This document shows positions 2,262 through 37,826 of a stretch of DNA of 64,000 nucleotides, piece by piece. This DNA is from an uncultured Candidatus Saccharibacteria bacterium. Its GTDB lineage: Bacteria > Patescibacteriota > Saccharimonadia > Saccharimonadales > AWTP1-31. Numbering within the stretch: position 1 is the stretch's first letter; every line of letters begins with the position of its first letter. Below the pieces are notes generated by a model. That model was not told the DNA's origin and did no database searches. It worked only from the letters and a program-made list of their open reading frames with translations. A program made the translations under genes and the position numbers. The DNA lies in assembly GCA_964536985.1 (NCBI GenBank), contig CAZIBG010000001.1:49017-113016 (forward strand), in the 5' to 3' direction.

Positions 2262-2990
2262 TTAGACCAGTGACAGTTGTTGACTGGGAGTAAAGGTCGC
2301 AGCCAAGCCATTAAGTTTTTGGTAACGTGCTGAACGCAAACCACTAGTCATTGTGGATAGTAATGAATTGGCGATGTAGATTTCTGCTCCCGATGCAGAT
2401 GTTAATTGAGCTAGTGGTTGTGTTGCATTGCCATACAAATTCTTTGAATTATTGAATGATTTAGTATCAATACCTGCAACATCGCTAAACATCCCAGCCA
2501 CAATTCCGTACCTAGTCCGGTGGGCTGCCAGTGTTATGACCTGTCGTTTAGGCTTTTGCTGCTGATTCTGGGCGTCGATTAACACTGTGCCGATACTAAC
2601 AAGTGCAGCACGTAGTCCTGCGGGATGTGCCAAAACAGGTCCGTACTTACCGGCAATTGTCAGTTCGATATCGCATGAGTATTTACGCGCTTTCTTATCC
2701 AGTGCATGTGCCACGTCATCTAGTGCAGCCCCTAGCGAAATTGGACTCAGTACTAACTGATCCCCTTCGGCCTGTAGCTGTAAACTTAATAGATAGTTAT
2801 CAATCATGTTTTCGAGCGTGTCTGCTGCTATAGCAAGGTTCTGCAAAGGCTTAACATCTCCGCTCTCGTAGCTCAATTCTGCGCTCCGGGCAATCTGCAT
2901 TAGGGGTAATTTCATTGATTCTGCAAATGATTTAAAGAGTCTAAATTGATCGTCACTAGAATAAATTTTGTGCTCAATATTTGACTTCAC
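2262..2990 (-). CDS. histidine-kinase-like protein with degenerate H-box and ATP-binding boxes (pseudo-kinase)
   Basis: FAESMKLPLMQI aligns to the HisKA SHELRTPL box with H replaced by E. The N, G1 and G2 boxes are only vestigial (TVLIDAQ, SDVAGID, SGAEIYIANSL). No TM segments; GTG start. Confidence 0.5.
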   Translation of the reverse strand: MKSNIEHKIYSSDDQFRLFKSFAESMKLPLMQIARSAELSYESGDVKPLQNLAIAADTLENMIDNYLLSLQLQAEGDQLVLSPISLGAALDDVAHALDKKARKYSCDIELTIAGKYGPVLAHPAGLRAALVSIGTVLIDAQNQQQKPKRQVITLAAHRTRYGIVAGMFSDVAGIDTKSFNNSKNLYGNATQPLAQLTSASGAEIYIANSLLSTMTSGLRSARYQKLNGLAATFTPSQQLSLV

Positions 2991-3084
2991 TGCAACTAAT
3001 TACCCTCGCTATATCTTTGGTAATTATAGCATGCGTGAACAGCCACATTAGCATGCTGATGTGGAGATTACATAGTATGGGATG

Positions 3085-3795
3085 TTACGGTATAAATGTT
3101 AGCTCTGGAAGAATGATGGTGTTGAAATCACCAACGTATTGAGATGCTTCAGTCCATATTTTGAGTGTTTTATCACGTAATGGCAGGATGACCATAGCGC
3201 CCTGCTTCTTGTTTACAATTTCCCCGTCGAGCCTTAGACCGACAGCTGCTGGAACTTTTGGAACGGTTACCGGTACCGCCGTAACCTTGCCGTTTTTGAC
3301 AAGCGACTCGGTAGTTTTAGCAACGTCAGCATATGCAGTGTCTACCACTTGAACTCGAAGCGCCACGTTGTTTCCTGACACCAACCCAGGAACAAAGCCG
3401 GGATTAAATGACCCATCCAGTGGTGCACTACCTTTGGTGGATTCGTCCATATAAACGCTCCACGTTTTAGGGTAACTTACGGTTACACTTCCATATGGAG
3501 CTGGTCCGGTGTAAATACGCAGTGGCTGCTTTTCTTTCTCTACAAATTCAGCATCTTTCTTTGCCTTTGTGGCTTCTTCTGCAGTAGCAACGGCAGCAGC
3601 AATTTTTGGCTCAACGTTATTCTTATAGTCTTGCATCCCCATAAATGCCCAGATGCCAAAACCTGCAGCCCCAATGAACAGCACCAGCACGCCAATAAAA
3701 GACATAAACCATACATCCACCAGACCTGACTGGTCGTTCGAGAGATCAATTCGCTTCATACTGCTCATGGTACCATACCCCTCCCGCTCAAGCAT
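3085..3795 (-). CDS. membrane-anchored hypothetical protein
   Basis: Single N-terminal TM (WFMSFIGVLVLFIGAAGFGIWAF) followed by a soluble domain; no recognised motif. True start may be the internal MSSMKR. Confidence 0.4.
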   Translation of the reverse strand: MLEREGYGTMSSMKRIDLSNDQSGLVDVWFMSFIGVLVLFIGAAGFGIWAFMGMQDYKNNVEPKIAAAVATAEEATKAKKDAEFVEKEKQPLRIYTGPAPYGSVTVSYPKTWSVYMDESTKGSAPLDGSFNPGFVPGLVSGNNVALRVQVVDTAYADVAKTTESLVKNGKVTAVPVTVPKVPAAVGLRLDGEIVNKKQGAMVILPLRDKTLKIWTEASQYVGDFNTIILPELTFIP

Positions 3796-3798
3796 AGA

Positions 3799-3984
3799 CT
3801 AGCTGAGCTTGGTAATCTTATTTTGAGCGTCTTGCAAATACTTATGTAGCTCTTTAGCTAACTTCTTTGCCTGTTCGTACTTGCTTATTGCCTCGTCTAC
3901 GTCTAGGTCATCATTTTCGAACCACGATAAAAGCTCATCTAGATCTTGCCTGAGTTGTTTATACGATTTTTCATTTTTAACCAT
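3799..3984 (-). CDS. xseB: exodeoxyribonuclease VII small subunit
   Basis: 61-aa helical protein (LDELLSWFENDDLDVDEAISKYEQAKKL) directly downstream of xseA. Confidence 0.8.
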   Translation of the reverse strand: MVKNEKSYKQLRQDLDELLSWFENDDLDVDEAISKYEQAKKLAKELHKYLQDAQNKITKLS

Positions 3985-3991
3985 GTCAGTA

Positions 3992-5128
3992 TTATACCTT
4001 TTTAACTTTTATTACTGTTGCTTCGGCCGTGCCATCCGTAAAACGCAAGTCAATAGCGCTGCCAATGTTTAGGTCAGCGACACTCCGTACAGTGTTGCCC
4101 CCGGTTTTTACTGCAGCATATCCGCGTCTTAGAATTTGCCGTGGATCATAACTATTTAGCAACAAAATACTAGACTGCAACTGCGTTGATAAAGAATCAA
4201 GGTATTGGCGCATTCGTTGATCTACAAATTGCATCTGGTGGGTAACACGTTGTTGCCTGTCGTTTACCTGGTTTGTAATTGTCTGCAAAGCCCGCGCCAC
4301 TTCTTGATCGATACCCTGGTTAACGCTAGCCCTGTCGGGGACCAACAATTCTGCGGCATTGCTAGGTGTGCTGGCTCGTACATCAGCTGCCATTTCCGCT
4401 AAACAAGTATCTACCTCATGGCCAATGGCTACCATTGTCGGAGTACGACTGGCGGCAACAGCTCTAATGACTTGTTCGGCATTGAAGGCTTGTAGGTCGT
4501 CAGCACTTCCGCCGCCCCTGGTAACTACGATTACATCAAGTTCTTCGCTAAGATTTAGCCGTTCTATTGCAGTAACGATTTGTGCGGGTGCGGCCTCACC
4601 CTGCACCTGCACATCAACATGCACTATCTCAACCCCGCCCCATCTCTGGGCAAGTATTTTCATAAAGTCTGCATAGGCCGCTGATTCTCCTGATGCCACC
4701 AGCCCGATCCTGGAAGGCGGATATGGTAGTGTTCGTTTCCGCTCCGGGTCGAACAAGCCTTCGGCTTGAAGCTTGGCCTGAAGTAGTTGAAATGCTTTCT
4801 TTATCGAACCTTCGCCAACCGGCTGAATTTTCTGAGCAGTTACCGAAAAACCAAATTGCTGATGAAGTCGAGGCACACCCGTAACCTGGAGCTTCATACC
4901 ATCTTCAAGTGGACCAGGCAGTGCGTAAATAGTGCCAAAGAATCGTACGCTGGATTGCTCGTCTTTCAGATCAAAGTATACCCACTTACCCTTACTAACT
5001 TTGAAGTTACTTAGCTCGCCTACAATTGTTACCGATGGGTAAGCATAATCTAATGTCTGATTTAAAACAGTAACAAAGTCACTTACCGATAGGATCAGTT
5101 GCTCATTCATGTGCAGTTGTGCGCCCAC
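3992..5128 (-). CDS. xseA: exodeoxyribonuclease VII large subunit
   Basis: N-terminal OB fold (ILSVSDFVTVLNQTL..VTIVGELSNFK) and catalytic core (RIGLVASGESAAYADF, VIVVTRGGGS). Confidence 0.85.
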   Translation of the reverse strand: MGAQLHMNEQLILSVSDFVTVLNQTLDYAYPSVTIVGELSNFKVSKGKWVYFDLKDEQSSVRFFGTIYALPGPLEDGMKLQVTGVPRLHQQFGFSVTAQKIQPVGEGSIKKAFQLLQAKLQAEGLFDPERKRTLPYPPSRIGLVASGESAAYADFMKILAQRWGGVEIVHVDVQVQGEAAPAQIVTAIERLNLSEELDVIVVTRGGGSADDLQAFNAEQVIRAVAASRTPTMVAIGHEVDTCLAEMAADVRASTPSNAAELLVPDRASVNQGIDQEVARALQTITNQVNDRQQRVTHQMQFVDQRMRQYLDSLSTQLQSSILLLNSYDPRQILRRGYAAVKTGGNTVRSVADLNIGSAIDLRFTDGTAEATVIKVKKV

Positions 5129-12845: not shown

Positions 12846-14090
12846 TTAGAAGTGGATGAACTTCATGCCAAGACTTGTGTATTTTGATACGCTCATCTCA
12901 TACATACGATATGCACCATCACCGCCAAGATTGTAATCGCTAACAACAATTGAACCGTCACTATTTACCGACTCAATGAATCTAACGTGGCCATAAGTAC
13001 CAGTAGTTATGCCAACTACTACTCCCCCGCTTGGATTGCCATTAACTTCGGCAGATGTACGATCATCCCAGTACTTGGCGTGACCTAGGCCGGAAAGTCC
13101 AGCGGGTGTATAGCCCTTAACTTGTGCTACACGGAATGCAGCCCAGCTAGTACAGTTACGGTAGCCGTAGGCCCACTCATCATATAAGTTTCGTGGACTG
13201 CTAGCACTTGGGTATCCCCAATCATACTCACGACATGGAGGATCGGCCGATCCGGGCCACAAACAAACGGCATTACCATACTTATAGCCGCCGCCACCTG
13301 CCACTCCCTTTGGGATTGAGCCTCCGAGGGCCCGCATGTTCTCTTCTACTTGCTTGCGGTTTAACTCTGATACGCGTGCACTATTATCCTTAATCTGAGC
13401 AGTCAGGGCGTTCTGCTGGTCCTGGTTGAGTGACAGAAGTCTATTCTGCTCTGATTTTTGCGAAGCGACCTGGTCTTTAGCCTTTTCCTGATCTTTCAAA
13501 AATCTTTCGACTTCTTCTTTTTGGCCACGTAACTGGAATTTGAGTTCAGTTATCTTCTCTAGTGTTGTCTTGATCTTATCTTGGACGGAGTTACGATACT
13601 GCTGTTTATCTACGAATTCGCTTAAATCCTTGCTAGAGGCCAACATTTCGAGTGTAGATATCTTACCTTCTAGGTATGATGCTTTTATGTTCTCGCCTAA
13701 AACATTCTTTTGTCGTGCCAGCTCTGCCTCAGCCTCATTGATTTGACCCTGGATAACTTCGATCCTAGTCTGGCTTTCGGCGATTTGTGATTCAAGGAGT
13801 GATATCTGCGCCTGAAGCTCAGCCACCGCTTCGCTAATAGAAGAAGCCTCTACTCCAAGAATATTCTTGGCTTTTTCTTGATCCTTAATTGCTTTTTCGA
13901 GCTGCTGTTTTTCTTGTATCTCTGTTTGGGTAAGTGCCCTGACTAAAGGCATGCCAATAAGAGTAGCGCCAAACACTAAACTAAACAGAAGGAAGGCAAT
14001 TCGCTTGCTGCCCGGTAACGTCTTAGTTTTTAGTGTTTTTATTTTTAGCATTTGTATATTCATAATATCATACCCCGCTAGTGCTTGCAA
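12846..14090 (-). CDS. PcsB-like cell-wall hydrolase: N-terminal coiled coil plus C-terminal CHAP domain
   Basis: Signal/TM segment, about 230 aa of heptad-rich coiled coil, then CHAP Cys (YRNCTSWAAF) and His (YGHVRFIESV). Immediately downstream of ftsEX. Confidence 0.7.
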   Translation of the reverse strand: MQALAGYDIMNIQMLKIKTLKTKTLPGSKRIAFLLFSLVFGATLIGMPLVRALTQTEIQEKQQLEKAIKDQEKAKNILGVEASSISEAVAELQAQISLLESQIAESQTRIEVIQGQINEAEAELARQKNVLGENIKASYLEGKISTLEMLASSKDLSEFVDKQQYRNSVQDKIKTTLEKITELKFQLRGQKEEVERFLKDQEKAKDQVASQKSEQNRLLSLNQDQQNALTAQIKDNSARVSELNRKQVEENMRALGGSIPKGVAGGGGYKYGNAVCLWPGSADPPCREYDWGYPSASSPRNLYDEWAYGYRNCTSWAAFRVAQVKGYTPAGLSGLGHAKYWDDRTSAEVNGNPSGGVVVGITTGTYGHVRFIESVNSDGSIVVSDYNLGGDGAYRMYEMSVSKYTSLGMKFIHF

Positions 14091-32216: not shown

Positions 32217-34193
32217 TTATTTCCAGAGTTGCATACCAGCGGTTAGCTGATCAGCCAATGAGTGACCTGCAATAAAGCTAACACCATAGAACGTAGTATC
32301 TTTAAGTGGTTGCGTCTGAAGCTTCTCGATAATCTCTTGATCGTCGGTAGTATCTTGCATCTCTTTAATGAACACGTGGTGGATCAAATCTGCGGTATTC
32401 ACCTTATCATGTAACTTATGAAGCTCTTTCTCGCTAGCCCGCATCACTATAATTGGGTACTGGCTATTGCGAGGAATGGAACCGTCCTCTGCGGTAAATA
32501 CATCCCCACTCGTTAGCTGCTCTTTTGGTAGTTCATTGCCAATAATCGCATCCATATGTGCTACAGCATTAGCCACTTGCCATGGCTCAAGCTCCTTATT
32601 AACAACCGTTACGATGCGCTTTGAAAAGTCTTGTGGGCGACCGTCAGTTACTTTCTTAGCAGCCTTTGGCGGTTCGGGGACTTTGAAAACTTCTGGGTAG
32701 ATACCCTTCGTTACCTCATCCACTTCCGATCGAAGTTGGGGGAAAGGTACGCCTTCGCGAGCGGTCACGCCCTCGAATATCCAGAAAACGCGCTCGGCGT
32801 ATCCCCAGCCACAAGCTGGCGGCATGCCGTATTCGAGCATCTCGACGTAATCTATATCGAGCATCATAGCCTCGTCATCGCCTGCATCACGCATGTTTTG
32901 TTGCTCAAGGAATCGATTGAGTTGATCGATCGGGTCATTCAATTCGCTAAAACCGTTACCAAGCTCACTACCAGCAATAATCGGCTGAAATCGTTGCACG
33001 GTATTGGCGTCATCGGGGTTAGTCTTGGCTAGCGGGCTAATGAAAAGCGGTGTATTTATAAGCCAAACAGGACCAGCAACGTCCTTACGGATATTCTTCC
33101 AAAGCTTATCAATTCCCCTGGCCTTATTCTCGGTTTGCTCAACTTCAAGCTTATTGTCTTCTAGAGCCTTTTTAACTTCATCCAGAGTACATTCGTAGAC
33201 ATCAATACCGTAACGTTTTTTGATCGTCTCGGCGTAGTCCCACTGTTCCCATTTACCAGAAAGATCGATATCGAACTTGCCTAGCTTAAACTGCAGCTTA
33301 CCGAATGCTTCTTTAATAACATAGCGATACATGTCTTCCATGAAGGACATGCCTTTTCGCCAATCCCAGTAAGCGGCGTACCATTCCATAGCGATGTGCT
33401 CTGGCAGGTGTTCATCGCTATAGTTTTCGTTTCGGAACCGAGGACCTAGATCATAAACCTTAGAGTAGCCGGCACCTATTAATCGCTTTAATGGCAGCTC
33501 GTGGCTGATCCTCAAGTAAAAGTCCTGATCCAAGGCATCCATGTGAGTTACGAATGGGTTGGCATCGGCACCGCCGGTGGTGTGCTCTAGGACTGGAACG
33601 TTGATCTCGATGAATCCCTCTTTGTTTAAGAAGTCGCGAGTTGCTTGCCAGAATTTACTTCGTCGCACAAACCGATCATAGACCTCTGTATTAACATTCA
33701 TGTCTACATATCGTCGTCGTAGCCGTTCTTCCTTGTTGGTAAAGCCATCTTGGGCCGTAGGCATCGGACGAAGGCTCTTAGTAAGCAGGCGGAGCTTATG
33801 AACGGTAACCGAACGTTCACCCGTCTTAGTTGTGGCTGCAACTCCTGAAACCTCAATAAAGTCGCCTGAATCAAGGAGGTTTAGGTGCTCAAATCCAAGC
33901 TCACTATTGGCATAATCTGGCTTTTGGACCTGCTCTTCGCTCAAGAAAAGTTGAATCGTGTCTTGCACATCCCGAATTACCACAAAGGCGATCTTGCCAA
34001 ATTTACGAATGTTGGTAATACGGCCTGCAATAGTTACGGATGAGCCAGATTTCTCAAGTTCTTCGTAACCAGCAAGAACAGTCGCTACTGACTGCTCGCG
34101 GTGCGAAGATGCGGGATAGGGATTAACGCCCAGAGCACGTAGTTCTTCCAGTTTTCTAAGCCGCTCATCGCGGAGTTCTTTTAGTGTCGCCAT
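32217..34193 (-). CDS. lysS: lysine--tRNA ligase (class II) fused to a C-terminal ~130-aa DUF2000/Pth2-like domain
   Basis: OB anticodon-binding domain plus class II core (FIEINVPVLE.., RNENYSDEHLPEHIAMEWY, MPPACGWGYAERV). The core ends near PFPQLRSE, followed by a linker and an extra domain. Likely start is MATLKEL at 34193. Confidence 0.9.
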   Translation of the reverse strand: MATLKELRDERLRKLEELRALGVNPYPASSHREQSVATVLAGYEELEKSGSSVTIAGRITNIRKFGKIAFVVIRDVQDTIQLFLSEEQVQKPDYANSELGFEHLNLLDSGDFIEVSGVAATTKTGERSVTVHKLRLLTKSLRPMPTAQDGFTNKEERLRRRYVDMNVNTEVYDRFVRRSKFWQATRDFLNKEGFIEINVPVLEHTTGGADANPFVTHMDALDQDFYLRISHELPLKRLIGAGYSKVYDLGPRFRNENYSDEHLPEHIAMEWYAAYWDWRKGMSFMEDMYRYVIKEAFGKLQFKLGKFDIDLSGKWEQWDYAETIKKRYGIDVYECTLDEVKKALEDNKLEVEQTENKARGIDKLWKNIRKDVAGPVWLINTPLFISPLAKTNPDDANTVQRFQPIIAGSELGNGFSELNDPIDQLNRFLEQQNMRDAGDDEAMMLDIDYVEMLEYGMPPACGWGYAERVFWIFEGVTAREGVPFPQLRSEVDEVTKGIYPEVFKVPEPPKAAKKVTDGRPQDFSKRIVTVVNKELEPWQVANAVAHMDAIIGNELPKEQLTSGDVFTAEDGSIPRNSQYPIIVMRASEKELHKLHDKVNTADLIHHVFIKEMQDTTDDQEIIEKLQTQPLKDTTFYGVSFIAGHSLADQLTAGMQLWK

Positions 34194-34238
34194 TGGCCTT
34201 AAGTATACCTGACTGAGCACCTAAGCACCAGAGGTGAA

Positions 34239-35094: not shown

Positions 35095-36351
35095 TTACTT
35101 GTTTGATGCCAATAATGCTAGTAAATCTTCTACATTGACCATTTTTGTAGTGTCTTCTGTGCGCTTCTTGAGCTCGTGCTCACCACCCGCAACCGTCTTT
35201 GCACTCACTACAACTCGATATGGAATCCCCATCAAATCGGCATCACCAAATTTCTCACCGGCACGTGCATCTCGATCGTCATAGAGCACTTCCACTCCTG
35301 AGTCGGTAAGTTTTTTGTACAGATCGTCGGCAGCTTCCACTACAGCTACGTCGTCGCCAAGTCGAGCAATATAGACCTTGGCAGGCGCAATATTCTCCGG
35401 CCAAACAAGCCCCTTGTCGTCGCTCATCAATTCTGCAATAACACCCATTACTCGGGTAATACCAATTCCGTACGACCCCAAAAATACCGGTTGCTTCTTG
35501 TCGTTCTCGTCGGCGAAGGTTACATCCATTTGTTCAGCTTTTTCGGTACCAAAATTGAATATATTACCAACTTCGGCACTTCGAACTTGCTCTAGCTCTT
35601 CTCGCTTAATACCAAGATTCTCGAGACTTTCGTCGTCTAGAACCTCTTCGTTAATGGCGATATTCTTGCCTTTATGCAAGTAAATCGTATCCTCACCGGC
35701 TTCACAAACTGTCTGGAACTCGTGGCTGAACTTAGTAAATGCTCCGCCACTGGCAAACGTCACGTAGGTAATGTCGCCAATACCAAATCGATCAAATATG
35801 CGGTTATAGGCTTCGATGGTCGCCTGGTAGAACACTTCATGCTGTTCGGCGTCGGTGGACAGTGAATACATATCCTTCATGACAAATTCACGTCCACGCA
35901 TGATTCCACTCTTCGAGCGGAGCTCATTACGTAGCTTAGTCTGGAACTGATAGGCATAGATTGGTAGATCTTTGTAGCTACTGACGAACTGTCGCATCAT
36001 TTCTAGAATGGCCTCTTCATGTGACCATGCCAGTCCAAGCTCAGTATCGTCTTTGAGTTTAGTCTTAAACCAAACGTCAACGACGTCATCATCCCAGCGA
36101 GTCGTTGCGTCCCAGGTTTCTTTGGGCTGAAGATTAGTCATGATCAGCTCTTGCCCGCCTATGGCGTTCATCTCTTCACGTACAATCTGTTTGATATTCT
36201 CTACAACTCGTAGTCCTAGAGGTGTGTAAGCATACACGCCAGCCATAACCTTATAGATGAAACCGGCCTGGATAAGCAGTTGGGCATTCTTGGCCATCTC
36301 ATCTGCAGGAGTGTTTTTGGTTGTTTTAGTAAATAATTGGGTCATTCTCAT
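35095..36351 (-). CDS. proS: proline--tRNA ligase, bacterial-type but lacking the INS editing domain
   Basis: MRMTQLFTKTTKNTPADE..., motif 2 RGREFVMKDMYS, motif 3 GSYGIGITRVMG. Only about 25 aa lie where the ~180-aa INS domain sits in E. coli ProRS. SD GAGGA 7 nt upstream. Confidence 0.9.
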   Translation of the reverse strand: MRMTQLFTKTTKNTPADEMAKNAQLLIQAGFIYKVMAGVYAYTPLGLRVVENIKQIVREEMNAIGGQELIMTNLQPKETWDATTRWDDDVVDVWFKTKLKDDTELGLAWSHEEAILEMMRQFVSSYKDLPIYAYQFQTKLRNELRSKSGIMRGREFVMKDMYSLSTDAEQHEVFYQATIEAYNRIFDRFGIGDITYVTFASGGAFTKFSHEFQTVCEAGEDTIYLHKGKNIAINEEVLDDESLENLGIKREELEQVRSAEVGNIFNFGTEKAEQMDVTFADENDKKQPVFLGSYGIGITRVMGVIAELMSDDKGLVWPENIAPAKVYIARLGDDVAVVEAADDLYKKLTDSGVEVLYDDRDARAGEKFGDADLMGIPYRVVVSAKTVAGGEHELKKRTEDTTKMVNVEDLLALLASNK

Positions 36352-36370
36352 AGCTTTTTCCTCTTTACGT

Positions 36371-36844
36371 TTATTTTACCTTACTTATCCCTATTCTCGC
36401 GATATCAAATCCATCGATACCTAACAACGCCTCCTGAAAGTCTGGAGTACGTTTTCGCCATCCAATGTTTCTGTAATGCTCACGCTTCCTTTCGCTACCG
36501 ACACAGTCCAATGCATCTCTTCCTGCTCGTTGTGCTAGTCTGCCTGCAAGTACAGCTACTCGATCTGCTCGGTGAACGGAGTCGTCCTGTATGTCACCGA
36601 TTAATCGGGCAGCGTATCCGTTATATGCATTAATCCAATGCATCCCCAGTCTTAAATCCTTAGCCGTCAGTCCCCGATCCATAACTGCTTCGATTAACCC
36701 AAGACCCTGGATCTTAAGACCCCGATCAAAGCCATCCTTTGTATCCAAAAGTTGTTCTGCTGTTGCATGCCAACCTTGTTCAATGTGTATAGCCACATCC
36801 TGTAATTTTCTTTGAATTTCCATAGTTTCTTTCATATCAGTCAC
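36371..36844 (-). CDS. hypothetical protein (157 aa), first ORF after the candidate attenuator
   Basis: Open frame with balanced composition and no recognised motif. GTG start abuts the terminator U tract; alternative ATG at 36835. Confidence 0.35.
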   Translation of the reverse strand: MTDMKETMEIQRKLQDVAIHIEQGWHATAEQLLDTKDGFDRGLKIQGLGLIEAVMDRGLTAKDLRLGMHWINAYNGYAARLIGDIQDDSVHRADRVAVLAGRLAQRAGRDALDCVGSERKREHYRNIGWRKRTPDFQEALLGIDGFDIARIGISKVK

Positions 36845-36849
36845 AAGAT

Positions 36850-36871
36850 AAAAAAATCGGCCCAGAGGCCG
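36850..36871 (-). terminator. intrinsic terminator CGGCC-UCUG-GGCCG followed by AUUUUUUU
   Basis: Minus strand reads gagCGGCCtctgGGCCGattttttt: a 5-bp all-GC stem, tetraloop and 7 U. Confidence 0.55.
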
Positions 36872-36936
36872 CTCTTGTGCTGATTTGTGGTTATTTATGG
36901 TAAATCTAGCTAAGCCCCTGGTGACATACCGGGGCT
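36850..36936 (-). promoter_or_regulatory. candidate leader-peptide transcription attenuator (segments 1:2, 2:3, 3:4)
   Basis: Segment 1 AGCCCCGG (36929-36936), segment 2 CCAGGGGCU (36913-36921), segment 3 GGCCUCUGG (36862-36870), segment 4 GGCCG plus U7. The 1:2, 2:3 and 3:4 pairings are mutually exclusive. Confidence 0.45.
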
Positions 36937-36974
36937 GGGGGTGTTATAAAGCTAAAGTGATTTAACATAATCAT
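36906..36974 (-). CDS. candidate 22-codon leader peptide MIMLNHFSFITPPAPVCHQGLS
   Basis: ATG preceded by GGTAGAG at 8 nt. Codons CCC CCA GCC CCG overlap segment 1. The UAG stop begins 5 nt after segment 2. Too short for the ORF track. Confidence 0.4.
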   Translation of the reverse strand: MIMLNHFSFITPPAPVCHQGLS

Positions 36975-36998
36975 AATATATACTCTACCATGTTTTCG

Positions 36999-37826
36999 TT
37001 ATTTGCCAACAGTAAAAACAAAAAGTACTAAGAATGCAATAAAATTCTTGATGGCATGCAAGAATATCGGAGACCAAAGCCTCCCCGTCTTGTCTCGCAA
37101 GTAGATGAGAAAAAGAGATAGTGTGAAGGTATCGATGGCAGCAACCCATAATAATGGAGCATTACTGCCGAACTGCAAGTGCGCCGCTGCAAACATGCAG
37201 CTAGTAATAATAATTGCCACGTATCGAGGCAGCTTACTTTTTAGTCCCGTGTATAGAAAACCGCGCACCAGTATTTCTTCTACTACTGGCGGCAGAATTA
37301 CCAAACTAGCAAACACTAACGGTAACTGCCACTGTGCAACATTCTTGAAGCCGATTTCTTGCTCTTGATCGAGATCAAGTCCTGGGAACCATGATTTAAC
37401 CGTATACAACAATACTAGGTAGGCGATGAAGTATAGAACATAGGCCATACTGGCATATCCAAAATCGCTCAGCTTTGGCCATCCCTTGAGACCAATGGCT
37501 TTAAGGTTAGATTGTCTTAACCTTAAGAATCTTACCAAAGCGGCCACACTAATAGACTCAATCAGCAGTATGATCAAGAACTGCCCAACGGCGTTATCTT
37601 GTAGCCATGTGCTGACTCGAGCTTCATCCCAACCTAGACTGTAGAGCACACTATAAATAATTAAGCCGCCCAACAACTGTCCTACGAAGTAAATACAAAC
37701 GGTAACAGCAATTGACTCTAGTGGCGTCCAGCCGATGCCAGTCTTCTTTTCTTGCTTGCCGATAAAATACCGTGTCAAACCATACAATCCCAGAAGGTAT
37801 ACCGGTGTTGCCCAACTAATATTCAT
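36999..37826 (-). CDS. CPBP family intramembrane glutamic endopeptidase (CAAX protease-like)
   Basis: EEILVRGFLY and FAAAH motifs; polytopic. Confidence 0.8.
   Translation of the reverse strand: MNISWATPVYLLGLYGLTRYFIGKQEKKTGIGWTPLESIAVTVCIYFVGQLLGGLIIYSVLYSLGWDEARVSTWLQDNAVGQFLIILLIESISVAALVRFLRLRQSNLKAIGLKGWPKLSDFGYASMAYVLYFIAYLVLLYTVKSWFPGLDLDQEQEIGFKNVAQWQLPLVFASLVILPPVVEEILVRGFLYTGLKSKLPRYVAIIITSCMFAAAHLQFGSNAPLLWVAAIDTFTLSLFLIYLRDKTGRLWSPIFLHAIKNFIAFLVLFVFTVGK

Follow-up and report, generated by a model that had tools for sequence, protein, structure and literature searches.

How is expression of prolyl-tRNA synthetase (ProRS, the product of proS) adjusted in an uncultured Candidatus Saccharibacteria bacterium? 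The question is raised by the minus strand of the stretch analysed here (64,000 nucleotides [nt] of contig CAZIBG010000001.1, called the window throughout), where the spacer between a gene for a CPBP/Rce1-like protease and the proS operon holds a short open reading frame (ORF) with proline codons, three segments able to pair in alternative ways, and an intrinsic terminator. A preliminary description of this DNA had taken the arrangement for an attenuator of the trp/pheM type, with a proline-codon leader peptide governing the proS operon. We compared the window with 167 related loci from Saccharibacteria (TM7), a member of the candidate phyla radiation (CPR); these loci are cited below by L numbers. 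The attenuator reading came through the comparative tests: it was supported by the ORF and its Pro codons, by covariation, by where the stall window falls, and by the proS and proB/proA-proS targets. We therefore favor, with a probability of roughly 0.7, a ribosome-mediated leader-peptide transcription attenuator that senses either how much Pro-tRNA(Pro) is available or how fast Pro-Pro peptide bonds are formed. The coordinates of the features are collected in Table 1.

The RNA structures lie where they had first been placed. Segment 1 is AGCCCCGG (36936-36929), segment 2 is CCAGGGGCT (36921-36913) and segment 3 is GGCCTCTGG (36870-36862); the leader stop codon starts 5 nt past segment 2, and the terminator reads CGGCC-TCTG-GGCCG-A-T7. 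All three pairings whose energies the preliminary description had left to be computed proved stable in RNAfold: -14.2 kcal/mol for hairpin 1:2 (z-score -2.7), -17.8 kcal/mol for the 2:3 pairing alone (-14.9 kcal/mol as a duplex) and -9.1 kcal/mol for the terminator hairpin. The 91-nt element at 36940-36850 folded at -28.2 kcal/mol, a stability that none of 200 dinucleotide shuffles reached (z-score -3.2). At -30.7 kcal/mol the terminator state exceeds the antiterminator state (-21.9 kcal/mol) in stability, and the predicted default is therefore off. A strict terminator scan, requiring a stem of at least 5 base pairs (bp) and at least 6 T in 7, returned two sites in the 64-kb window, and the one at 36871-36850 was the only one that is intergenic. 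The second (13855-13870, plus strand) lies inside a gene. Few operons of this genome thus seem to end in a canonical terminator, as far as such a scan of the sequence can tell.

We then asked what a ribosome on the leader would do to these structures, masking a 28-nt footprint codon by codon and calculating the probability of the terminator from the partition function. In the window this probability was 0.90 with no ribosome, fell to 0.00 with T11, P12, P13 or A14 in the A site, returned to 0.90 from P15 on, and stood at 0.72 with the ribosome at the stop codon. Five relatives (L066, L162, L164, L165 and L166) gave the same profile. With the ribosome on Pro12 or Pro13 the minimum free energy (MFE) structure was the antiterminator. 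The proposal that a ribosome halted at CCC-CCA covers segment 1 and leaves segment 2 free is thus borne out in six genomes, where the terminator was lost in the simulation. Pro12 and Pro13 are productive stall sites in this model; the third proline codon, Pro15, is not.

If proline codons are what the element reads, they should be kept by selection. The ORF is as first described, 22 codons from 36974 to 36906 encoding MIMLNHFSFITPPAPVCHQGLS before the stop. Six genomes share the window leader type (the window, L066, L162, L164, L165 and L166), with a consensus of ..PP[AT]P[IVM]CH..L. and a common stop position. The relatives' peptides are MSLTKKVFINIPPAPICHRRLR in L162, MSLAQKVYFNVPPTPICHRRLC in L164, MSLARKVYFNVPPAPMCHRELC in L165, MSLAHALLFQVPPAPICHRGLC in L166 and MFLNIFINLTPPAPVRHRRLS in L066. 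These leaders were gathered through the loci of a protein family encoded directly after the leader in the window (the orphan family, see below); all such loci with upstream sequence available have the window type, while L064 is cut inside the leader and the contig of P0001, a 97% homologue, begins at the gene start and contributes no leader. Between the window and L066 the leader ORF differs, by a hand count, by a 3-nt indel and six synonymous substitutions, with the frame kept. The Pro-Pro codons vary only synonymously in the six leaders (CCC CCA, CCG CCA, CCA CCA and CCG CCC), and conservation of the short ORF and its proline codons in frame, which the preliminary description had singled out for comparison, was therefore upheld. 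These codons lie mostly 5' of stem 1, and base pairing therefore does not account for their conservation. More widely, 61 distinct leader peptides contained 12.9% proline, versus 3.6% in the window proteins; every one had at least one Pro, 53 had at least two and 22 had the dipeptide PP. Arg codons were frequent in the short leaders and missing from several of the three-stem leaders, leaving Pro as the sole universal residue.

The alternative pairings are conserved as well. An earlier alignment of four sequences was underpowered for the 2:3 pairing (its score was reached in 177 of 500 shuffles), and the results given here come from alignment A3, which has eight sequences. In A3, 92.9% of the cells of the 2:3 pairing with its GCU:AGC extension were paired, compared with 34-60% in slid registers, and the pairing carried three two-sided compensatory pairs; its covariation score was matched by 3 of 500 shuffles. 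A base in the terminator loop (U in the window, C elsewhere) changes together with a base of segment 2 (A in the window, G elsewhere); the 2:3 pairing is the sole explanation for this exchange. The terminator stem was paired in 95% of cells, with one compensatory change from C-G to U-A, and hairpin 1:2 was paired in 75% of cells, in part at shifted registers. The covariation expected of an attenuator was thus found for the 2:3 pairing and the terminator.

Beyond the close relatives, nine three-stem leaders of unrelated primary sequence (the window, L066, L001, L043, L025, L032, L071, L092 and L079) all retain complementarity between segments 2 and 3, through such different duplexes as GGGGUGU:ACACCCC, AGGGGUA:UACCCCU, GAGGCG:CGCCUC and GGGUCU:AGACCC. 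Cognate 2:3 duplexes averaged -12.6 kcal/mol and non-cognate ones -9.0 kcal/mol (permutation p=5e-5).

One part of the preliminary description did not survive, namely the way in which translation of the leader would begin. The sequence GGUAGAG had been assigned as a Shine-Dalgarno (SD) element; its position was correct (36989-36983, 8 nt before the ATG at 36974), but it falls inside an extended -10 box, with TTGGCA 16 nt upstream. We dropped the SD reading because of this overlap and because the spacing from -10 box to ATG recurs across leader loci. No credible SD is present for the window leader ORF, whose ATG lies 7 nt past the -10 box. Across 95 distinct loci, a -10 box (consensus TACAAT) sits just past the CPBP stop or, in a few, within the 3' end of the CPBP gene, and is preceded across a 17-nt spacer by TT(G) at -35. 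In 73 candidate loci an ATG lying 6-9 nt (occasionally up to 12 nt) beyond this box opens an ORF of 10-35 codons; about 60 of these were convincing, with 15-26 codons. Because the box keeps its distance of 6-9 nt to the leader ATG across the convincing loci, translation of the leader ORF probably starts on a leaderless mRNA. A scan of the window for further leaders combining a leaderless small ORF (sORF) with a hairpin found none.

The same -10 box is found in 37 loci that have no leader, there 9-12 nt before the proS ATG itself, which implies, judging by spacing, that many Saccharibacteria have leaderless or near-leaderless proS mRNAs. In these loci (e.g., L004, L006, L008, L029, L036, L050, L080, L085 and L086) a (G)GTACAAT box adjoins the CPBP stop.

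The promoter also bears on another account of the hairpin and its U7 tract, that they are the plain terminator of the uppS-rseP-CPBP operon and the 22-codon ORF arose by chance. The distance would suit it, the terminator following the CPBP stop by 128-149 nt, and short ORFs are common in A+T-rich spacers. We nevertheless regard this account as most improbable. The hairpins are separated from the CPBP stop by a conserved promoter, the ORF keeps its frame in relatives and changes synonymously, the antiterminator covaries, and an outer helix described below shows selection on transcripts that cross the terminator. Many relatives, moreover, have no terminator between CPBP and proS, where the gap is 1-27 nt.

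Put together, the attenuator would work as follows. Transcription would begin at about the A of the leader ATG (36974) from the TTGGCA-16-TGgTAGAGT promoter, and a 70S ribosome would translate the leaderless ORF. When Pro-tRNA(Pro) is ample, or by default, the ribosome would reach the UAG (36908-36906) and cover segment 2, with 1:2 refolding upon its release; segments 3 and 4 would then pair, and the CGGCC/GGCCG hairpin with its U7 tract would stop the transcript near 36850. When Pro-tRNA(Pro) is scarce, the ribosome would halt while Pro12 or Pro13 occupies the A site and would cover segment 1 but not segment 2. Segment 2 would capture segment 3 as it emerges (9 bp and the 3-bp extension), the terminator would be blocked, and RNA polymerase would continue into the orphan gene and proS, so that more ProRS would yield more Pro-tRNA(Pro) in a negative feedback. 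A terminating default combined with read-through on a Pro-Pro stall matches the trp/pheM logic.

Leaders were sought in proS neighborhoods only, and every one found there precedes proS, proB or proA. In several relatives, leaders containing PPP, PPPP or PTPPP stand before proB-like genes, followed by proS; the leaders of these relatives are the most proline-rich, with VVPPPRS, LPPPPLGE, VPTPPPGV and FPLPPVEA up to the stop codon. The proB-like products resemble glutamate 5-kinase (TIGR01027, E values of 1e-30 to 1e-40, under the curated cutoff) and have no PUA domain. The presence of proline-synthesis genes is itself noteworthy in a phylum with reduced genomes.

A second class of leader, found in about 45 species, is shorter and has a single hairpin. 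Its ORF has 15-22 codons and closes with h-P-[PAV]-x-R-(R/P)-stop, as in PPRR, PACR, PARR or PVRR before the stop (e.g., L017, L022, L027, L094, L099, L113, L120, L123, L151 and L160). The terminal codons form a 4-bp stem with a tetraloop, whose fourth pair covaries between G-C and C-G, and an interrupted U/C-rich run comes next. We located the hairpin without reference to any ORF, by the pattern CCG-S-N3-5-S'-CGG, and examined the three frames that cross it. The frame that reads CCG as Pro was open from an ATG in 44 of 45 distinct loci, and each of the other two frames in 2-3 of 45. The distance from ATG to hairpin was always a multiple of 3, and was 30-60 nt for the ATG that adjoins the -10 box. 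The single-hairpin element may be a weak terminator that the stalled ribosome occludes directly, a pause site, or part of a switch that masks the ribosome-binding site (RBS).

These two classes allow us to weigh an explanation in which the leader responds to its translation in general, in the manner of the pyrBI/pyrE or ampC attenuators, and its proline codons are a by-product of a G+C-rich stem. CCG and CGG do serve at once as stem nucleotides and as Pro and Arg codons, and the single-hairpin ORF crosses the hairpin and stops directly after the stem in 27 of 45 loci, which is the pyrBI geometry. The window lacks that overlap, since its ORF ends 35 nt short of the terminator stem. Its Pro-Pro codons, mostly outside stem 1 and variable only synonymously, the frame fixed in 44 of 45 loci, the runs of 3-4 Pro codons before proB and the confinement to proS, proB or proA of all instances found in the proS neighborhoods searched also argue against this explanation, which we consider quite improbable.

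Stalling on the leader ORF might instead remodel the mRNA and alter downstream translation or stability rather than termination, in the style of the mycobacterial poly-Cys sORFs. The nearest leaderless precedent acts translationally (bioRxiv 10.1101/834739), and in the single-hairpin class the would-be terminator is a mere 4-bp stem with a tetraloop and an interrupted U-run, while the SD of proS is frequently taken up in pairs with leader codons or the U/C tract. When we simulated a ribosome stalled on proline in this class, accessibility of the RBS rose in some loci (0.26 to 0.61 in L099 and 0.30 to 0.54 in L089), but the mean effect was small and heterogeneous (0.42 to 0.48). In the window, the hairpin is a canonical G+C-rich one with a U7 tract, and it is this very hairpin with which the covarying 2:3 pairing competes. 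For the gene starting at 36823, the free read-through transcript leaves the RBS 0.51 unpaired, and this RBS lies outside the alternative pairings. Remodeling as the principal output is accordingly improbable in our estimate, and we retain transcription attenuation for the window element.

The first gene that would be controlled by the attenuator is an orphan. The preliminary description had given its product 157 amino acids (aa); the gene is shorter, with its start at ATG 36823 and a product of 150 aa, since in L081, a 99% relative, a 1-nt indel separates the ATGs lying upstream. The protein had no match in Pfam or NCBIfam, and an AlphaFold2 single-sequence model was unusable (mean predicted local distance difference test score [pLDDT] 46.5). 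A profile search with the family, whose members span 113-150 aa and share a conserved ..RRLAHHAGRSAL.. motif, found only seven clusters (P0001-P0007) among 5.8 billion sequences. All six clusters with visible surroundings lie directly upstream of proS, with CPBP upstream wherever the contig extends that far. Members include L162 2001-2426, L164 1016-1393, L165 234-593 and L166 345-686. The gene has been inserted between leader and proS in a few lineages only and is missing from nearly all of 160 fetched loci.

Every locus with an ORF157-like gene (the window, L066, L162, L164, L165, L166 and L064) also has, in per-sequence folds, an outer helix of 10-13 bp that surrounds the terminator hairpin. 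The MAFFT register for this helix was wrong in alignments A1 and A3, and we used per-sequence folds with RNAalifold in its place; the RNAalifold consensus over outer helix and terminator stem had 15 pairs, 8 of them with compensatory changes. G-U wobbles make the helix specific to the sense strand. It was not seen in three-stem leaders that have no ORF157-like gene. Because the outer helix can form only after read-through, read-through transcripts should exist and be under selection, which fits a conditional terminator. The helix could stabilize the 5' end beside the SD, be a place where the RNA is processed, or bind the orphan protein.

The last of these possibilities can be extended into a further alternative, in which a protein factor such as the orphan protein binds the outer helix or the terminator region and governs termination or the stability of the mRNA, with the small ORF in a secondary role. 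In its favor, the helix, its compensatory pairs including those of the terminator stem, occurs only in ORF157-like loci and ends a few nt before the SD of that gene, and the orphan family is found only directly upstream of proS. The orphan has neither an RNA-binding domain nor a family match, its structure model gives no guidance, and the leader ORF with its three-stem logic occurs with neither orphan gene nor helix in L001, L043, L025, L032, L071, L092 and L079. Control of this kind, by a protein and with the small ORF secondary, is very improbable in our view; a protein factor is also compatible with the attenuator. We suggest, as a speculation that we hold to be doubtful, that the window element is one instance of a phylum-wide Saccharibacteria "proline ribulon" (leaderless mini-ORFs with Pro codons placed on proS and proB/proA), with the terminator-spanning helix and the orphan protein as an added feedback or mRNA-stabilizing layer here.

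Several points weigh against the attenuator. The evidence is computational throughout, and the case for leaderless translation in Saccharibacteria is one of spacing only; in L066 the -10 box is ill-defined, and its ATG may have a short untranslated leader. With only two or three Pro codons, the leader falls short of the runs known from the his, phe and thr leaders, and a G+C-rich stem in this frame itself reads as Pro and Arg codons. The sequences are related, so covariation statistics based on shuffling overstate their independence. Three of the nine three-stem loci (L001, L071 and L092) retain the terminator at equilibrium despite a stalled ribosome, and for these a kinetic argument is needed. 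The gene under direct control is an orphan with no assigned function. Finally, proS might bypass the attenuator through a -10-like GGTAAAAT that is shared with L066 and appears as GGTAATAT in L064. This box has no -35 element; the 14-mer GTAAGGTAAAATAA around it is identical in L066, although the proteins are 30% identical. Judging from these sequences, proS may have a weak internal promoter and some attenuator-independent transcription.

Table 1. Coordinates of the leader element, the genes behind it, and the proline-synthesis genes in related loci. Positions without a locus number are those of the window.
Feature	Position	Strand	Details
Promoter	36982..37009	-	-35 TTGGCA 37009-37004, 16-nt spacer, extended -10 TG-g-TAGAGT 36990-36982 (consensus scan)
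Leader ORF	36906..36974	-	22 codons + TAG; in-frame orthologues in L066, L162, L164, L165, L166, L001
Sensing codons Pro12-Pro13 (CCC CCA)	36936..36941	-	kept in all six window-type leaders; third Pro codon CCG 36932-36930
Hairpin 1:2	36913..36936	-	bulged A36919, loop UAUGUCA; lower stem UAGCU 36954-36950 : AGCUA 36911-36907; MFE folds
Antiterminator 2:3	36862..36921	-	36921-36913 : 36870-36862, plus GCU 36910-36908 : AGC 36873-36871
Intrinsic terminator	36850..36871	-	CGGCC-UCUG-GGCCG 36871-36858, A, U7 36856-36850
Outer helix	36836..36884	-	36884-36873 : 36848-36836, A36841 bulged; surrounds terminator hairpin, U-tract as internal loop
Orphan gene (earlier ORF157)	36371..36823	-	all-helical protein, 150 aa, start ATG 36823; first gene after leader
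-10-like GGTAAAAT	36373..36380	-	overlaps orphan stop codon, 21 nt before proS ATG
proS	35095..36351	-	418-aa ProRS without INS editing domain; TIGR00409 proS_fam_II 393 bits (cutoff 307); Pfam tRNA-synt_2b + HGTP_anticodon
Short proB-like gene between CPBP and proS	L043 3175-3963; L025 3231-3983; L032 772-1521; L071 3190-3996; L092 1714-2487		
proA	L010 2733-3974		directly upstream of proS; 516 bits

The genes around the element were identified with Pfam and NCBIfam. Their order on the minus strand is uppS, rseP (M50), the CPBP/Rce1-like protease, the unmatched ORF, proS, greA, a csaA-like gene and lysS, which bears out the names first given to the downstream genes; the CPBP stop is the TAA at 37001-36999, as had been read from the sequence. 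proS starts 19 nt past the end of the orphan gene. Relatives of its product assign the window to Saccharibacteria; the best match from a genome is 80% identical, and a single metagenome contig is 99% identical. The order M50-CPBP-proS-greA is kept in most of the 160 fetched loci. No tRNA genes were found in the 64-kb window.

A few observations concern the neighboring genes and spacers in their own right. The lysyl-tRNA synthetase (32217-34220, minus strand) carries a C-terminal DUF2000 fusion at residues 534-667. The ProRS of L162, a locus with the window leader type and an ORF157-like gene, has 567 aa and a tRNA_edit domain (2524-4227), in contrast to the 418-aa window enzyme, which has no INS domain. 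In several relatives the CPBP-proS spacer holds arrays of short direct or inverted repeats (L009 3835-4000, L056 3648-3900, L093 1586-1740, L149 2311-2500, and, in front of the leader, L112 and L126). The repeats are, for instance, GTTTACC/GGTAAAC in L056 and AATTTTCAA in L149, and those of L112 and L126 are long and inverted. These may be arrays of binding sites or small mobile elements.

Two other kinds of tRNA-linked control were considered and rejected for the leader. A permissive Rfam cmscan of 36000-37600 (E values up to 10) found no T-box or other family, its only returns being chance matches to Bp1_162 and CrcZ, on the opposite strand; a T-box or known leader family was ruled out on this basis. 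By inspection, mimicry of a tRNA anticodon arm in the loop of hairpin 1, as in a thrS-type operator, was also set aside: an NGG anticodon is missing from the 7-nt loop (UAUGUCA or UCCGUCA), and tetraloops are found in relatives.

The proposed element can be placed among known systems. The pheM-pheST and trpL leaders of E. coli are the classical leader-peptide transcription attenuators. The window element resembles them in its short ORF of cognate codons, its 1:2, 2:3 and 3:4 hairpins, its terminator and a stop codon placed to mask segment 2, and resembles pheM-pheST further in having an aminoacyl-tRNA synthetase operon as its target. It differs from both in the pairing of proline with proS, a seemingly leaderless start with no SD, only two sensing codons, the terminator-spanning outer helix and a CPR host. 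Proline codons are used by the Salmonella leader ORFs mgtP (of mgtCBR) and mgtL (of mgtA) (PMC3641672). There too, Pro codons in a short ORF tie charged tRNA(Pro) to read-through via alternative stem-loops, but the targets are Mg2+ transport and virulence, translation is SD-dependent, the leaders are long and respond to multiple signals, and they have no sequence or Rfam relation to the window element. The mycobacterial leaderless poly-Cys sORFs form a "Cys ribulon" in which a stalled ribosome unmasks a downstream RBS (bioRxiv 10.1101/834739). They share with the leaders described here a leaderless sORF as first cistron, enrichment of one amino acid, an operon of the same metabolism, stalling, and occurrence at many loci and in many species. 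The amino acid and the output differ, Cys with a translational output there and Pro with a terminator and a competing antiterminator in the window.

T-boxes act by direct binding of tRNA, independently of translation; in Firmicutes such elements are also found upstream of proBA and proI. As in the arrangement proposed here, uncharged or undercharged tRNA(Pro) leads there to antitermination and so to more ProRS or more proline synthesis, whereas the window element has no detectable T-box and would depend on translation. The proS gene of Firmicutes is among the genes under T-box control (e.g., table in PMC2836559), and leader-peptide attenuators have been predicted for trpS and leuS in Streptomyces (PMC1262725). 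In the literature that we searched we found no leader-peptide attenuator for proS or proB, and no attenuation in CPR bacteria. The mechanism of the classical attenuator is textbook knowledge; what appears to be new, on the sequence evidence, is the pair of proline and proS and the clade in which it occurs, the probable leaderless start and the extra helix.

CPR bacteria, including Saccharibacteria, have tiny genomes and few transcription factors and obtain amino acids from their hosts. To our knowledge, almost nothing is known of how they regulate their genes. If the attenuator is real, Saccharibacteria would use classical attenuation, couple transcription to translation and have functional leaderless initiation, and proline with proS would join the short list of synthetases controlled by leader peptides (pheST and, by prediction, trpS and leuS). 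The element, at about 125 nt, would also be a compact part for probing proline starvation or stalling that depends on elongation factor P (EF-P). Should the proline ribulon prove true, CPR bacteria would have in it, so far as the literature searched shows, their first described cis-regulator that senses an amino acid, and its module of helix and orphan protein could be a feature not seen in classical attenuators.

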